A stretch of DNA of 64,000 bases, from assembly GCF_963921235.1 (NCBI RefSeq), contig NC_086097.1:59894001-59958000 (forward strand), given 5' to 3'. The stretch is from Mobula hypostoma. Its lineage: Eukaryota. Both the position numbers and the translations under genes were made by a program. The notes below the pieces were generated by a model. It worked only from the letters and a program-made list of their open reading frames with translations. It searched no databases and had not been told where the DNA came from. Positions 8,573-64,000 of this stretch are shown piece after piece (position 1 is the stretch's first letter; every line of letters begins with the position of its first letter).

Positions 8573-10440
8573 AGACCATAAGACCATAAGGCATAGCAGC
8601 GGAATTAAGCCATTCAGCCCACTGAGTCTCTCTGCCATTCCATCATGGCTGATCCCAGATCCCACTTAACTGCATACACCTGCCTTCTTGCCATATCCTT
8701 TGATGCCCTGACTGATCAGGAAGCTATCAACTTCCAGCTTAAATATACCCACAGACTTGGCCTCCACTGCAATCTGTGGCAGAGCATTTCACAGATTCAC
8801 TACTGTCTGGCTAAAAAACACCTCCTTACCTCTGTTCTAAAAGGTCGCCCCTCAATTTTGAGGTCGTGCCCTCTAGTCCTGGATCCCCACGCATTCTTCT
8901 AAATTCTGGTGAGTACAGGCCCAAAGCTGCGAAATGTTCCTCATATGTTAACCCTTTCATTTCTTGAATCATCCTCGTGAACCTCCTCTGAACTTTCTCC
9001 AATGACAACACATCCCTTCTAAGATATTGGGCCCAAAACTGTTGGCAGTACTCCAAGTGTGGCCTGGCTAGTGTCTTAAAAAGCTTCAGTGTTTTCTCCT
9101 TGCTTTTATATTCTATTCCCCTTGACATAAATGTCAACATTGCATTTGCCTTTTTTTCAACCACAGACTCAACCTATAAATTAAGTTCTGGGAGTCGTGC
9201 ATGAGGGCTCCGAAATCCCTCCGTACCTCTGATGTTTGAACTTTCTTGCCATTTAGATAATAGTCTACACAATTGTTCCTTTTACCAAAATGCATTTTCA
9301 TACATTTCCAAGCACTGCATTCCATCTGCCACCTTTTTGCCCATTCTTCTAATCTGTCTAAGTCTTGCTGCAATCACAATGCTTCCTCAGCGTGACTTAG
9401 CCCTCCACCTATCTTCATATCTTTCACTAACGGTGCCACAAAGTCATCAATTCCATTATCTAAATAATTAAAAAAGCTGAGATTAGATTAACTGGCCTAT
9501 ATTTTCTTTCTTTTGCATTCTTCCCTTCTTAAAGAATGGAGTGACATTTGCAATATTCCAGTCTTCTGGGACCATGCCACAATCAAGTGATTTTTGAAAG
9601 ATCATGACCATGCAACCTATCTCAGGACTCGGGGATATAGTCTGTTTGCTCCAGGTGACTTATTCACCTTAAAACATCGGAGTTTGCCTAACACTTTTTC
9701 CTTTGCAATAGCAATTACACTCACTCTTGCTCCCTGACACTCACGGACCTCTGGCACTCTGCTAGTGTCTTCCACAGTGAGGACTGATACAAAGTACCCA
9801 ATAAGTTCAACTGCCACTTCTTTGTCCCCATTACTACTTCTCCAGCATCATTTTCTGGTGGTTCAATATCAACTCTCACCTCCCTTTTACTGTTTATATA
9901 ACTGAAAATAACTTTTAGTACCCTACTTTATATTATTGGCTAGTTTTCCCTCATATTTCATCTTCTCCATTCTTAGTTTTTTTAGTTGCCTTTTGTTGGA
10001 TTTTAAAAGCCCAATCATCCAACTTCCAACAAACAAGAGAAAATTAGCAGTTGCTGGACATCCAAGCAACACAAGCACAAAGCTCTGAAGGAACTCACCA
10101 GGCGAGGCTGCATCAATGGAAAAGAGTATTGATGATGTTTGGGGCCAAAACCCTTCAGCAGGACTGGAGAAAAAAAGCTGAGGAGTAGATTTAAAAGGTG
10201 GGGGGGTGGAGGGGAGAGAGAAATACAAGATGATAGGTGAAAACTGAAGAGGGAGGGATGAAGTAAAGACCTTGGAAGTTGATAGTTGAAAGAGGCAGAA
10301 GGCCATCACTCACTTTTGCTACCTTATATGGCCTTTCCTTGGCTTTTATACAATCCTTAACTTCCCTTGTTAGCCACAAATGCTTTAACCTCCCATCTGA
10401 GAATTTCTTCTTCTGTGGGACATATCTATCTTGTGCCTTG
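8573..10440 (-). mobile_element. Degraded CR1 LINE with internal deletions
   Basis: ORF2 fragments RPHLEYCQQFW, QQDLDRLEEWA and KSPGANRLYPRVL; agaccata tail. Confidence 0.9.
10028..10304 (-). mobile_element. Penelope pseudo-LTR inserted in CR1, hammerhead degenerate
   Basis: Same family as 85-480; minus strand agtcctgctgaagggttttggccccaaacatc has a mutated core. Confidence 0.8.
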
Positions 10441-11892: not shown

Positions 11893-12220
11893 GACACAAG
11901 AGATCTCTGCAGATGCTGGAAATATTCATCAACAAACACACAAAGCTGGAGGAACTCAGCACGTCAGGCAGCATCCATGGAGGGAAATAAACAGTTAACA
12001 CTCTGAGCTGAGGCTTTTCACCAGGACAATAGACAATAGGTGCAGGAGTAGGCCATTCGGCCCTTCGAGCCAGCACCACCATTCACTGTGATCATGGCTG
12101 ATCATCCACTATCAGTATCCAGTTCCTGCCTCAGTTCCTGACTGGAAAGGAAGGGGGCAGAAGGAAGAATAAGCAGGTGGGAGAAGGGGGAGGAGCACAA
12201 CTGGCAGGTGATAGGTAACT
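11893..12220 (-). mobile_element. Penelope pseudo-LTR interrupted by a ~105-bp CR1 3' tail (12026-12131)
   Basis: pLTR sequence breaks at ...caccaggac and resumes at gactggaaagg. The insert matches the CR1 3' end at 61030-61135. Confidence 0.8.
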
Positions 12221-22606: not shown

Positions 22607-25600
22607 CCAAAGGTTCATTTATTATCAAAGTATGCAACTCTGAATAATAAGTTTACCATCCTGGATACTGTTGGCGGGAATGACCGACCAGGTGTGAGCC
22701 ACGGTGGCAGGGCTTCTGGCACTGAGTCAGACCCTGTGGTGCACAAGGGTGGGACGGAGAAGAGGAGAGTTTTCATCATTGGAGACTCTATAGTCAGGGG
22801 AGTAGACAGGAGATTTTGTAGACGTGAGAAGGACACCCGCATAGTTTGTTGTCTCCTGCGTGCCAGGGTCCGGGATGTCTCCGACCGGGTGCACGACATC
22901 CTAGTATGAGAGGGAAAGCAACCAGGAGTCGTGATACATGTTGGCATCAACGACATAGGCAGGAAGAGGGATGAGGTCCTGAAGTGTGAGTTTCGGGAAC
23001 TAGGCAGAAGGCTGAAGAACAGGACCTCAAGGGTGACGTTCTCAGGATTGCTGCCAGTGCTACGTGACAGTGATGGTAAGAATTGGAGGAGATGGCAGTT
23101 GAATGCGTGGCTGAGGAGTTTGTGCATGGAGCAGGGTTTTAGATTTTTAGATCATTGGGATCTCTTCTGGGGAAGGTGGGACCTGTACAGATTGGATGGG
23201 TTGCACCTGAACTCGAGGGGGAGTGATATCCTTGCAGGTAAGTTTGCTAGCATGGTTAGGGAGGGTTTAAACTAATTTGCAAGGGGGATGGGACCTGGAG
23301 TGATAGAGCAGTGAAAGAAGTGCATGGAGTAAAGCCAGATCTAACATACAGAGAGGCTTTGAGGAAAGAGAAGTAGAATAAACAGTGTAAAGGTAGAAAG
23401 GTAGTAAGGCAGAAGGGCTGAAGTGTGTGTACTTCAATGCAAGAAGCATCAGGAGCAAAGGTGATGAACTGAGAGTTTGGATACATACATGGAATTATGA
23501 TGTAGTGGTCATTACAGAGACTTGCCTGGCACTAGGGCAGGAATGGATTCTCAATATTCCTGGATTTCAGTGCTTTAAAAGAGATAGAGAGGGCGGAAAA
23601 AGGGGAGGAGGGATGGCATTACTGGTCAGGGATACTATTACAGCTACAGCAAGGGTGGGTAATGTAGCAGGATCCTCTTTTGAGTCAATATGGGTGGAAG
23701 TCAGGAACAGGAAGGGAGCAGTTACTCTACTGGGGGTATTCTATCGGCCCCCTGGTAGCGGCAGAGATACAGAGGAGCAGATTGGGAGGCAGATTTTGGA
23801 AAGGTGCAAAAATAACAGGGTTGTTATCATGGGTGACTTTAACTTCCCTAATATTGATTGGCACCTGATTAGTTCCAAGGGTTTAGATGGGGCAGAATTT
23901 GTTAAGAGTGTCCAGGATGGATTCCTGTCACAGTATGTGGACAGGCCGACCAGGGGGAAAGCCATACTAGATCTAGTACTAGGTAATGAACCGGGTCAGG
24001 TCACAGATCTCTCAGTGGGTGAGCATCTGGGGGACAATGACCACTCCCTGGCCTTTATATTTATCACTGAAAAGGATAGAATCAAAGAAGACAGGAAAAT
24101 TTTTAATTGGGGAAGGGCAAATTATGAGGCTATAAGGCTAGAACTTGCAGGTGTGAATTGGGATGATGTTTAGCTGAGAAATGTAAGATGGACGTGTGGT
24201 CGATGTTTAGGGATCTTTAGCAGGATGTTAGGGATAAATTTGTCCCAGTGAGGAAGATAAAGAATGGTAGGGTGAAGGAACCATGACTGACAAGTGAGGT
24301 GGAAAATCTAGTCAGGAGGAAGAAGGCAGCATATATGAGGTTGAGGAAGCAAAGATCAGATGGGTCTGTTGAGGAATATAGGGTAGCAAGAAAGGAGCTT
24401 AAGAAGGGGCTGAGAAGAGCAAGAAGGGGCTGAGAAGAGCAAGAAGGGGGCATGAGAAGGCCTTGGCAAGTAGGGCAAAGGAAAATCCCAAGGCATTCTT
24501 CAATTATGCAAAGAATAAAAGGATGAAAGGAGTGAAGGTAGGACTGATTAGAGATAAAGGTAGGAAGATGTGCCTGGAGGCTGTGGAAGTGAACGAGGTC
24601 CTCAATGAATACCTCTCTTCGGTATTCACCAATGAGAGGGAACTTGATGACGGTGGGGACAATATGAGTGAGGTTGATGTTCTGGAGCATGTTGATATTA
24701 AGAGAGAGGAGGTGTTGGAGTTGTTAAAATACATTAGGGTGGGTAAGTCCCCGGGGCCTGATGGAATATTCCCCAGGCTGCTCCACGAGGCGAGGAAAGA
24801 GATTGCTGAGCCTCTGGCTAGGATCTTTATGTCCTCGTTGTCCACATGAATGGTACCGGAGGATTGGAGGGAGGCAAATGTTGTCCCCTTTTTCAAAAAA
24901 GGTAGTAGGGATAGTCCAGGTAATTACAGACAAGTGAGCCTTACGTCTGTGGTGGGAAAACTGTTGGAAAAGATTCTTAGAGATAGGATCTATGGGCATT
25001 TAGAGAATCATGGTCTGATCAAGGACAGTCAGCATGGATTTGTGAAGGGCAGATCGTGTCTAACAAGCCTGATAGAGTTCTTTGAGGAGGTGACCAGGCA
25101 TATAGATGAGGGTAGTGCAGTGGATGTGATCTATATGGATTTTAGTAAGGCATTTGACAAGGTTCCACAAGGTAGGCTTATTCAGAAAGTTAGAAGGTAT
25201 GGGATCCAGGGAAGTTTGGCCAGGTGGATTCAGAATTGGCTTGCCTGCAGAAGGCAGAGGGTGGTGGTGCAGGAAGTACATTCGGATTGGAGGATTGTGA
25301 CTAGTGGTGTCCCACAAGGATCGGTTCTGGGACCTCTACTTTTTGTGATTTTCATTAACGACCTGGATGTGGGGGTAGAAGGGTGGGTTGGCAAGTTTGC
25401 AGACGACACAAAGGTTGATGGTGTTGTAGATAGTGTAGAGGATTGTCAAAGATTACTGAGAGACATTGATAGGATGCAGAAGTGGGCTGAGAAGTGGCAG
25501 ATGGAGTTCAACCCGGAGAAGTGTGAGGTGGTACACTTTGGAAGGACAAACTCCAAGGCAGAGTGCAAAGTAAATGGCAGGATACTTGGTAGTGTGGAGG

Positions 25601-25841
25601 AGCAGAGGGATCTGAGGGTACATATCCACAGATCCCTGAATGTTGCCTCACAGGTAGGTAGGGTAGTTAGGAAAGCTTATGGGGTGTTAGCTTTCATAAG
25701 TCGAGGGATAGAGTTTAAGAGTCGCGAAGTAATGATGCAGCTCTATAAAACTCTGGTTAGGCCACACTTGGAATACTGTCAACACACATAAAAGTTGCTG
25801 GTGAACGCAGCAGGCCAGGCAGCATCTCTAGGAAGAGGTGC

Positions 25842-25877
25842 AGTCGACGTTTCAGGCCGAGACCCTTCGTCAGGACT
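25842..25877 (-). ncRNA. Minimal type I hammerhead ribozyme (inverted arm)
   Basis: Minus strand agtc-CUGACGA-agg(gtctcgg)cct-GAAACGUC-gact. Confidence 0.75.
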
Positions 25878-25921
25878 AACTGAAGGAAGAGTCTTCCTTT
25901 TCTCTCACTCTTCCTTCAGTT

Positions 25922-25957
25922 AGTCCTGACGAAGGATCTTGGCCTGAAACGTCGACT
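25922..25957 (+). ncRNA. Minimal type I hammerhead ribozyme
   Basis: agtc-CUGACGA-agg(atcttgg)cct-GAAACGUC-gact; stem I agtc/gact. Confidence 0.75.
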
Positions 25958-26707
25958 GCACCTCTTCCTAGAGATGCTGCCTGGCCTGCTGCGTTCACCA
26001 GCAACTTTTACGTGTGTTTTTTGAATTTCCAGCACCTGCAGAATTCCTGTTGTTTGCTTGGAATACTGTGTCCAGTTCTGGTCGCCTCACTATAGGAAGG
26101 ATGTGGAAACATTGGAAAGGGTACAGAAGAGATTTACCAGGATGCTGCCTGGTTTAGAGAGTATGCATTGTGATCAGAGATTAAGGGAGCTAGGGCTTTA
26201 CTCTTTGGAAAGAAGGAGGATGAGAGGAGACATGATAGAGGTGTATAAGATAATAAGAGAAATAGATAGAGTGGGTAGCCAGCACCTCTTCCCCAGGGTA
26301 CCACTGCTCAATACAAGAGGACATGGCTTTAAGGTAAGGGGTGGGAAGTTCAAGGGGGATATTAGAGGAAGGTTTTTTACTCAGAGAGTGGTTGGTGCGT
26401 GGAATGCACTGCCTGAGTCAGTGGTGCAGGCAGATACACTAGTGAAACTTAAGAGACTACTAGACAGGTATATGGAGGAAGTTAAAGAAAGGGGTTTATA
26501 TGGGAGGCAGGGTTTGAGGGTCGGCACAACATTGTGGGCCAAAGGGCCCGTAATATGCTGTACTGTTCTATGTTCCATGTTCTATATGAGATTCTTATTC
26601 TCCAGATCGCCACAAAACCAAGAAAATAATGAATGACAGCACAATCATCAATGCCCCTGAAATTCCTGCTCCCCACACAAATAAAGACAAAAACGGAATA
26701 GGCACAT

Positions 26708-36460: not shown

Positions 36461-36813
36461 TCAGTCTCAACTTTAGCAAAAGAACCAAGTTAAGCGTGGC
36501 TCAGTGTTTCTTCAACAATTAATGGCTCTTTATTGATCAGATGATTACATCAGTTCTGGAAAAGGTGCTTGCGATTTTCTGTCATATCTATATATAAAAT
36601 AGCATCGCTTAGAGTGAATTTAGAATCATTAATTCTGCTGTGGGAGTAATCAGATAATTATATACAGAAAGACCTCAGGGAACCAAAGACAGTTACCTGT
36701 GAGGACTATGAAAACTGAGGTTATAATTAAATACAACATCTTGTATCTGGAGAAAATAACTAACCTGTTTTTATCCCTTGGTCACGACATTATAATAAAG
36801 GATGGTTGAATGT

Positions 36814-36910
36814 TAGTCCTGACGAAGGGTCTCGGCCTGAAACGTCGACTGCACCTCTTCCTATAGATGCTGCCTGGCCTGCTGCGTTCACCAGCAACTT
36901 TGATGTATGT
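36814..36910 (+). mobile_element. 97-bp Penelope-derived mini-insertion starting at a hammerhead
   Basis: 11-bp TSD tggttgaatgt (36803-36813 / 36911-36921). Confidence 0.92.
36815..36850 (+). ncRNA. Minimal type I hammerhead ribozyme
   Basis: agtc CUGACGA agg-gtctcgg-cct GAAACGUC^gact; predicted cleavage after 36846. Confidence 0.78.
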
Positions 36911-37501
36911 TGGTTGAATGTGTGACACCTTTGAGCATTTATGGGAATGGCCTGCTTAAGGTGCAGGAAAAGTAATTACCTATCAAACAGCACCTGATTC
37001 TGCTACATTCACTGTGCCCTTGATTTCAAATAAGTACAAAAAAAAGCAAAGTTACATTTTATCTAATCATCAGAACACTGATTCTTGAGACCGGCGAAAA
37101 CATGACCCACTAAAAAAAGTGCTAATTCCATTGAAAATGAATGACATTTTCTTATTTAAAATAATCAAGGTTGATCATCTGAGTGTCTTTTTGCACAATT
37201 TTTTTCATATGTTTGTTTTTAATTTTATAAATTATATGATTATATGATAGCCCAGTACCCACAAAATCAGTTGTCCTCAGACAAGAGATTATCATTTCAA
37301 TCTGATTAAAAAAGTGTGAAAGAATTATTTAAAATGCATACTATATATGCCAGATGAAAAAGTAGATTGAAAAACCTCTTTAAAACTAAAAGCAGTGAAT
37401 TTTCAACAATATTTACTCTTATTTTGTGGTTGCTCAAAATGCGTCCCAAGTTTTTGTCAACACCATCAGATATTTATAAAAAAAAAGCAATAAAATCAGG
37501 C

Positions 37502-37733
37502 GTAAACAACAGGAATTCTGCAGATGCTGGAAATTCAAGCAACATACATCAAAGTTGCTGGTGAATGCAGCAGGCCAAGCAGCATCTATAGGAAGAGGCG
37601 CAGTCGACGTTTCAGGCCGAGACCCTTCGTCAGGACCGACGAAGGGTCTCGGCCTGAAACGTCGACTGCGCCTCTTCCTATAGATGCTGCTTGGCCTGCT
37701 GCGTTCACCAGCAACTTTGATGTATGTTGCTTT
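37502..37733 (-). mobile_element. Palindromic Penelope pseudo-LTR mini-insertion
   Basis: 13-bp TSD aataaaatcaggc (37489-37501 / 37734-37746); 95-bp arms 37537-37631 / 37638-37732 with one mismatch; 6-nt loop. Confidence 0.95.
37602..37637 (-). ncRNA. Minimal type I hammerhead ribozyme
   Basis: Minus strand ggtc CUGACGA agggtctcggcct GAAACGUC gact. The plus-strand arm lacks the CU of the core. Confidence 0.72.
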
Positions 37734-38436
37734 AATAAAATCAGGCAACCACATGGTCAACTATATTCCTGAGGACCCCATTTCCACCCTCCACATCTGC
37801 TAAATGCAACAAGATCAAACAAGCTCCTATAAGTTTGCTATTTTTCAATAATTTTTACATATTTATTGATGTTGCTACTGTCACAACCATGATGTGTCAG
37901 CACTGTCTCTTTTGTATAGAAAAAATTATTTTAAATTATGACATAAATTTAGGCATTTTAAGTAGAGGCCAGAGGCAGCTAGTAACAGAGGGAAAACAAG
38001 ATGGCTCCTATATACAACTCATGCATGTCATGTAAAAAAGTGTGTTTTCATCACCAATGTCAGACATCGACTCCATCAGGTTTTCTGTCTGACGGTGGTG
38101 ACACATAATTTGACGGTGTTGACAAAAATATCCAAATCATCCTCCATGGAGGCTTGAATATAATATGATCACAATAAATAGTAATATGGCTTGTAGTGTT
38201 TCATTAACCTCTCTATTTATAATATACATAATTTCCCCTTTATTTCTTCCACACAGCCTACAATATTTCCTTACTATATGTATCCCCAATGACTAAAACC
38301 ATAAATGAATTTAGTTGCACCATTTCATAACCATTTTATAAAAACTCACCAAATTAAACATAATTAAAGTCATAGTAATTATGCATAATTTCATAGTAAT
38401 TCCATTAAATTCTGACCTTCCTTTTATGTATTTTAG

Positions 38437-63041: not shown

Positions 63042-63178
63042 CACAAACAAGAGAAAATCTGCAGATGCTAGAAATCCAAGCCACACACGCAAAATTTTAG
63101 AAGAACTCAACAGGCCAGGCAGCATCTATGGAAAAGAGTACAGTCGCCATTTTGGGCTGAGACCCTTCAGCAGAACTC
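63042..63178 (-). mobile_element. Penelope pseudo-LTR remnant, hammerhead degenerate
   Basis: Similar to 37504-37636 and 10029-10165. Confidence 0.8.
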
Positions 63179-64000
63179 ACCAAATATCATTCAGCTTTCC
63201 TCACCATATGACCAGTAGTCAACGTTCATTCTAGAACATTGTAACTCTTCTTTCTATTCCAGTTGTGCATAATGAAGACACAGGCAGCTATTTTAGCATT
63301 GCCAGGGTGAACACACAAGTCCACTTTAACAATAATATAATATTTAACAGTCACTTGGTGACCTTAATGTTAAAAGAAATGGTTAACTGTTCCTTATTCT
63401 ATCCTTATTCCCGGTCACAAACATATGATCTTGCATATCTTCATGCTTTCCACAGGTTAGGTATAGCTTCCGTCCATTCTAGTTCTGTATGCTCTGATGT
63501 TGTCAATGAGTGGTGTGCATCATTTGCACACCCTATCACAGGTGAGGCAGGTGAGAGGCCTCGACTTGGCCCCCACATGTTCACATTGTAGACAGTTGAG
63601 GTCTATTAAGGATTCAGGGCTGTGTGTTCTGTCTCCATCCTGAGCAACCACTAGCAAAATATTTGCATTGGGTGGTGGGGATATTACATATTTTATTTAG
63701 AAAGCCATTGAGAACATCCTTGAAGTGTTCCTCTCTTATTCTGGAAATCTCTTTAAGTAACAAAATGAAAGTAGTGCTTTTGTTTTGGGTGTCTGCTATC
63801 AGGAAAAAGGATAATATAGATTACCCAATGAAATCGGTTAAAAACTTTCAACTAATATGATAAGGTAGACTGTTACTTAAGTGATAATTTTCAGCCACTG
63901 GGAATATTTCTCAAGAATAGGGAAACCTGGTGAAGTTTATTCTTTATTCTCTTTCAGTTGATTGCATAGCTAATCCTCTATTTTCCTACCACTAAGTTGA

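Follow-up and report, generated by a model that had tools for sequence, protein, structure and literature searches.

The insertion layout treated here, inverted 5′-truncated copies with a tail at one end, is already published for Penelope-like elements (PLEs): an adjacent, inverted, 5′-truncated copy and a 30–40 bp tail have been described in endonuclease-bearing (EN+) PLEs (Craig et al., 2021, PMC8557442; Arkhipova et al., 2013, PMC3846280; Schostak et al., 2008, PMC2377424). How PLEs form these inverted structures is still undefined according to Craig et al. (2021); self-priming by an antisense RNA has been proposed (Arkhipova et al., 2013). [quoted passage not shown] A CX2-5CxxC motif in the RT-EN linker, together with two cysteines between GIY and YIG, is given as characteristic of the Neptune and Nematis clades (Craig et al., 2021), and the linker motif is likewise shared. 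The locus differs from the published units in being a minimal case: with both copies cut to ~110–150 nt, the repeats enclose no ORF. The TSDs measure 13–15 bp, as against 8–10 bp in the rotifer PLEs described in these accounts.

Biochemical work on PAc, a Poseidon element of the lizard Anolis carolinensis, established in vitro that both target strands are cleaved and extended, and that two RT start sites, alike on both strands, bracket the tail (Frangieh et al., 2024, PMC11167929). Cutting and extension of both strands and a tail bracketed by two start sites are points of likeness to the mode of insertion proposed for the present family, as is a hammerhead that is dispensable for insertion. 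PAc belongs to another clade, however, since Penelope/Poseidon elements are described as lacking the linker Zn-finger; its hammerhead is cleaved with the help of protein; and the main text of that study ties the start sites neither to inverted copies nor to a coupling of one site to each nick.

Twin or dual priming of L1 offers a second precedent, in which a second nick primes a second cDNA and leaves inverted pieces within one TSD, joined at a microhomology junction (Meyer et al., 2010, PMC2837659). The locus likewise has a pair of inverted pieces enclosed by a single TSD, but the L1 site is variable and accompanied by an internal deletion, whereas the second site here is fixed near the pLTR boundary; neither an internal deletion nor a variable second site was found at the locus, and its arms overlap by 112 nt, which makes it a true palindrome. 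Non-LTR retrozymes (bioRxiv 10.64898/2026.07.22.740005) are also non-coding, derived from PLE pLTRs and equipped with type I hammerheads; they are described as direct tandem repeats with two same-strand ribozymes, whereas the pair here is inverted with one ribozyme motif per strand, and a direct tandem array bearing two or more hammerheads on the same strand was not found at the locus. Neither a strict one-tail rule nor coupled priming of PLEs was found in the literature searched (on twin priming and on palindromes with small RNA, with the main subscription reviews outside its scope), and a search on shark Neptune elements yielded no paper.

Architecture and parentage of the insertion

The original prediction was of a 277-bp insert with a 13-bp TSD and inverted arms of ~112 bp around a 14-nt spacer, and these coordinates were verified in the sequence (Table 1). 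The 38-nt tail, borne by the right arm alone, had not been part of it. The insert splits the RT frame of a host non-LTR retrotransposon (Pfam RVT_1, E 3e-33), which by resemblance we take to be CR1/L2-like. Among the LINE copies in the retrieved loci, 14 matches run gap-free across the insertion site and 4 have larger spacings. All three mismatches between the arms are changes on the tailed arm, and the locus is one decaying copy, a dead end that has accumulated private changes since insertion.

Table 1. Features of the insertion and its host site, in window coordinates.
Feature	Position	Strand	Remarks
Host non-LTR retrotransposon (LINE)	23397..26560	+	approximate extent; RVT_1
TSD, left copy	25767..25779		CTTGGAATACTGT, 13 bp; codons of host LINE motif LEYC
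Insert	25780-26056		277 bp
Tail-less arm, 5′-truncated pLTR end	25780..25892	-	stops at pLTR boundary; 113/113 identity with natural copy L003
Inverted arms	25781-25892 and 25907-26018		112 nt each, 3 mismatches
Minimal type I hammerhead	25841..25878	-	5-bp stem I, stem II of 3-4 bp, helix III loop absent; nominal cleavage after 25846
Central junction/spacer	25893..25906		14 nt; genome-unique
Tailed arm, 5′-truncated pLTR end	25907..26018	+	family homology from 25903
Minimal type I hammerhead	25921..25958	+	stem I 5 bp, stem II 2-3 bp; nominal cut after 25953
PLE tail, 38 nt	26019..26056	+	after 5′ pLTR, leading into ORF in long copies (L165, L233)
TSD, right copy	26057..26069		13/13 identity to left copy

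At the center, the 8 nt at 25892-25899 (TCTTCCTT) are the reverse complement of 25883-25890 and also repeat the start of the right arm; to judge from its letters, this repeat is a templated insertion. The junction can form a 7-bp DNA hairpin (−4.9 kcal/mol), with a snap-back of 7–8 bp. A further stretch spanning spacer and arm, TTTCTCTCACTCT (25899-25911), recurs by eye ~200 nt upstream in the 3′ UTR of the element, so part of the spacer may be the product of a template jump.

By homology, the arms are identified as the pLTR ends of a canonical endonuclease-bearing PLE (RT + GIY-YIG), placed head to head. When the genome was queried with the right arm plus its tail, 1,432 candidates emerged; 40 of these were scored, and 30 retrieved. 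Many retrieved copies run upstream into an ORF with the RT motif YIDD, a CKRNKCYTC linker and a cysteine-bearing GIY-YIG domain, and the motif VIYC..C..C..LYIGET occurs in translations of copies continuous with the arm, every frame seen being broken. Two of four parent frames matched Pfam (RVT_1, E 3e-5; GIY-YIG, E 1.6e-4) with bit scores under the curated cut-offs (24.3 vs. 29.6 and 22.3 vs. 22.6), and the other two had no Pfam match. The translated linker (CKRNKCYTC) has the CX2-5CxxC form and the GIY-YIG domain has internal cysteines (CVRCSRC); the linker motif would mark the parent as a member of Neptune or Nematis. The hammerhead motif is located in the pLTR, as expected of an EN+ PLE. 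In L165 the tail continues into the ORF, and L233 is a partial tandem with a pLTR and tail at 7389-6951, a second pLTR at 3707-3292 on the same strand, and the ORF between them. As a whole, L233 (3292-7389, minus strand) is a near full-length pLTR+tail-ORF-pLTR arrangement with a unit of ~3.7 kb, frameshifts and an internal duplication.

Abundance of inverted pairs and the one-tail rule

Such a palindrome is no rarity: it is a routine form of insertion in this family. Genome-wide, exact copies of the 28-nt ribozyme core number 42,891, and across the whole genome head-to-head cores no more than 12 nt apart are found at 1,027 loci. A blind sample of 14 blocks of 100 kb (1.4 Mb), scored for clusters with at least 84% identity and a 3′ end, contained 42 clusters, one of them with two insertions, and thus 43 insertions after three fragments without a 3′ end had been excluded. 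Inverted pairs made up 16 of these 43 (37%; Wilson interval 24–52%), comprising 15 pairs and one more with a 79% arm, with two ambiguous cases uncounted; nine pairs are 360 bp or shorter. Scaled to the genome, this corresponds to ~107,000 insertions, ~40,000 pairs (23,000–65,000) and ~22,000 short pairs (10,000–42,000). The locus alone therefore matters little, being one among an estimated 23,000–65,000 inverted pairs, while the family constitutes a large natural data set on how PLEs build inverted structures.

Exactly one arm bears the tail in all 55 non-redundant pairs, which were collected with a tail-bearing query (11), with a tail-free one (35), from the blind sample (7) and from the window (2) after removal of one internal duplicate. 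The same holds for 30/30 pairs picked by a tail-free pattern, with no two-tail and no no-tail pair, and for all 16 pairs of the blind sample (7 of them also among the 55). If each nick chose between the two sites with equal probability, a one-tail outcome in all 30 pairs would have a probability of ~1e-9. Tail-less arms end no more than 8 nt from the pLTR boundary in 45 of 55 cases, and the ends of tailed arms fall within 5 nt; 54 of 55 pairs received a TSD call, with a median of 14 bp, from a caller whose chance level is uncalibrated. Of the single copies for which a TSD was called, 6 terminate at the tail and 7 at the pLTR boundary, so both end sites are also used alone. The idea that insertion is obligately two-ended, with apparent single copies hiding a short inverted remnant, was unsupported, as most short single copies directly adjoin their TSD. 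An apparent C-right/T-left bias between arms near the pLTR end was dropped because it came from loci found with a C-bearing query.

Arm length varies in both directions. Among the nine clearly unequal pairs of the blind sample, the tail-less arm is longer in six and the tailed arm in three; unequal pairs among the 55 split 5 vs. 4, and the arms of L010 do not overlap at all. In sequence, the two arms of a pair resemble each other more than arms of different loci do: non-CpG mismatches number 1.26 within vs. 2.72 between loci (47 pairs; equalled in 0 of 10,000 permutations) and 0.69 vs. 1.98 in a second set of 26 more pairs, and subfamily variants are concordant between arms in 28 of 30 pairs. 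Later gene conversion, or few source elements active at once, could also produce this likeness. The arms of L054, L153 and L263 are discordant at subfamily-marking sites (6–8 mismatches), and these loci are candidates for an origin from two templates.

Inner arm ends are clustered as well: 25 of 57, a count that includes three alignments crossing a junction, start in a 22-nt interval just upstream of the ribozyme core, and none lies within 5 nt of the cut site. The arms of the locus itself start 19–23 nt upstream of the core, off this peak. Both at 25903-25926 of the window and family-wide, the cluster sits at TCAGTT/TTAGTC words, which we take to be initiator-like, the preceding stretch presumably resembling a branch point followed by a 3′ splice site. 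The cluster may represent the 5′ end of the RNA, and short arms would then be run-off products akin to strong-stop cDNA.

Origin of the pairs

Two 5′-truncated pLTR ends within one TSD probably arose here in what was likely one event, with both nicks priming reverse transcription and the hammerheads, predicted to be inactive, carried as passengers. The GIY-YIG endonuclease would nick both strands ~13–15 bp apart; one 3′-OH would serve as primer at the tail end, the second one 37 nt further in, at the pLTR boundary; both cDNAs would run toward the 5′ side of the RNA, each ending independently of the other and in many cases immediately upstream of the hammerhead core; and their ends would be joined through a few matching or templated bases, to which the 8-nt repeat at the locus would correspond. 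With the one-tail rule and the free length of the arms, the start sites of Frangieh et al. (2024) become a testable model of coupled priming vs. self-priming. It is a point against coupled priming that the start sites in that in vitro study did not differ between strands.

Self-priming has a cDNA or antisense RNA snap back and be copied into a hairpin, which the endonuclease resolves at the tail boundary, and it explains near-identical arms and a single tail without any coupling. Short palindromes at the junction are the published argument for it (Arkhipova et al., 2013), the 7–8 bp snap-back at the locus junction, with its −4.9 kcal/mol hairpin, is what that model expects and counts against coupled priming, and the D. 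virilis endonuclease requires the tail for recognition (as cited in Frangieh et al., 2024). Such a fold-back would, however, fix which arm is the longer, and both directions occur among the unequal pairs; nor does it fit the non-overlapping arms of L010, tail-less single copies with TSDs of their own, or the finding that a single junction can have its tail on either arm (18 vs. 12). The one-tail rule and the free arm length fit coupled priming better than a simple fold-back, which we regard as unlikely. Dual priming by two RNAs, one per nick, from a dimeric RNP or from two RNPs, would make the 112-nt overlap easier to obtain than strand displacement on one template; it would account for the three pairs with arms from different subfamilies, and it has parallels in the dual priming proposed for L1 (Meyer et al., 2010) and in the predicted dimer of the PLE protein (Frangieh et al., 2024). 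Yet arms nearly always share their subfamily variants, and two RNAs, barring an asymmetric dimer, give no reason for the absence of two-tail and no-tail pairs among 30. The three mismatches at the locus are private and fit independent CpG decay. An origin of the locus from two templates through a linked A+T variant was rejected, as genome copies with A alone number 514 and those with A plus T 48; the A+T variant had looked enriched because the query carried it. Priming from two RNAs is rather improbable.

The impression in the original prediction of a MITE in look and a retroelement in origin stands, as arms and tail belong to a Penelope-like pLTR. Like MITEs, these insertions are short, non-coding, TSD-flanked and hairpin-forming, with thousands of copies; unlike them, they have asymmetric ends, a retroelement parent, and centers that vary by copy and are remade at each insertion. 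At the locus, the inverted repeat is terminal on the left and stops 38 nt short of the right end, within a TSD; the ends are a retroelement pLTR and a tail, and DNA-transposon ends were not found. A non-autonomous, MITE-like family that propagates itself, or a regulatory hairpin maintained by selection as a supply for Dicer or ADAR, would be in keeping with the strong hairpin, with one complex junction common to exactly two loci on one contig, and with the estimated number of short pairs. Against this, the junction of the locus occurs once in 3.48 Gb, the locus is decaying within a repeat, and the commonest tight junction, present at 224 loci, is found on several subfamily haplotypes among the first 30 loci listed, where the tail sits 18 times on one arm and 12 times on the opposite one; this junction was therefore remade at microhomology rather than inherited. 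A homogeneous family copied as a unit was not found in the comparison of these two junctions, MITE-like copying was rejected, and either form of this explanation is very unlikely. An assembly or library artefact, such as a chimeric fold-back read, is hardly credible: among the pieces listed from public runs, all of them contigs of short reads, none crossed the central junction (four runs) or covered the wider stretch around the insert, but the 13-bp TSD without a mismatch, ends typical of the family, the three differences between the arms, and the existence of 1,027 similar tight double cores whose junctions vary all speak against it. Artefactual fold-backs have identical arms and no TSD.

The complex junction just mentioned is 29 nt long and occurs exactly twice in the genome, in L039 and L040 (G000:C22:39879624 and 37486949), which are separated by 2.39 Mb of one contig, lie on opposite strands and are flanked by separate TSDs; in L039, inner and outer subfamily variants are mixed on both arms. 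Ectopic conversion of the palindrome center or local re-copying is possible for this pair. L045 and L046 (G000:C18, 69 kb apart) also have a junction in common, with tails on opposite arms and TSDs that differ. Segmental duplication was rejected for both sets because their flanks are non-collinear.

Coupled priming by both nicks admits a bolder version, which we put forward tentatively and consider doubtful, in which PLEs undergo programmed twin priming: one dimer would use one RNA with a different start site for each nick, never twice the same, and the resulting ~20,000 self-masking hairpins would be a source of dsRNA and break-and-convert sites. If so, the long-unexplained inverted structures of PLEs would be accounted for, and the ~20,000 short hairpins in this genome would supply dsRNA against their own family as well as sites for breakage and conversion.

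Fifteen of 101 tail-end flanks map to the LINE of the window, and three positions in it were struck more than once: 26057 of the window together with L048 and L142, ~25020 by L248 and L151, and ~26146 by L247 and L036. The first of these is the site of the locus itself, and the hits are independent, in paralogous LINE copies. This repeated use of homologous LINE positions suggests a sharp target preference of the endonuclease.

Hammerhead motifs and hairpin transcripts

Minimal hammerheads of metazoan PLEs (Cervera and de la Peña, 2014, PMC4209133) resemble those at the locus in having no loop 3, a palindromic 15.2–16.2 stretch, a short helix I (5 bp) and an extra base before stem II. Those at the locus differ in a stem II of only 3–4 bp, closed by a G-U (or A-U) pair instead of the conserved G10.1-C11.1. 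The original prediction of a complete hammerhead core in each arm was borne out for the conserved residues, since C3-A9, G12-A14, A15.1-U16.1 and H17 are present on both strands and the core letters (CTGACGA ... GAAAC GTC) are complete at 25873-25846 (minus) and 25926-25953 (plus). It did not extend to helix III, which is absent: GAAAC is directly followed by GUC, with nothing beyond a palindromic ACGU and no closing loop, and Rfam gave no match in the window at its gathering score. On the plus strand, stem II is further shortened by a private G>A change. Minimal hammerheads are reported not to cleave as single copies (“data not shown”) and to cleave weakly as same-strand dimers (Cervera and de la Peña, 2014; for a review on minimal hammerhead cleavage, see PMC6765202); no dimer in cis is available here, because the partner copy is antisense.

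The insert folds at −240 kcal/mol (z −27.9), a stability equalled by none of 100 shuffles. As had been anticipated, a read-through transcript from either strand contains one ribozyme motif and its antisense, with cores on both arms; because the arms are head to head, the antisense arm would be transcribed first on either strand, so the minimal hammerhead would by computation be paired as it emerges and its cleavage is predicted to be blocked. On both strands, folding put the unpaired probability of the core at 0.0 for all the transcript lengths tested; the probability that the first stem I pair forms was 0.0 in the palindrome and 0.0 and 0.004 in single arms, values that describe equilibrium on transcript prefixes rather than kinetics; a populated active fold was thus not found by computation in the palindrome or in single arms. 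The expectation that the hairpin masks the ribozyme is therefore upheld for masking as computed, with little activity to hide, given a motif without helix III and a broken stem II pair on the plus strand. Both motifs are predicted to be unable to cut. Protein-assisted cleavage is possible for active elements, by analogy with PAc, and is not evident for the stub at this locus.

Were it transcribed by read-through, a hairpin of this length would be a plausible substrate for Dicer or ADAR. The same can be said of thousands of loci of this kind, with no need to invoke selection. One public run guessed to be RNA (short-read contigs) gave no cover on most of the unique flank. In annotation, such stubs will be taken wrongly for MITEs, miRNA hairpins or active ribozymes.

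The window holds further members of the family: a second head-to-head pair at 37504-37736, with the tail on the minus side, a 13-bp TSD and a junction of the hotspot type; a tail-less single copy at 36812-36919; and older relatives at 130-218, 10030-10165, 11906-11975 and 63044-63180.
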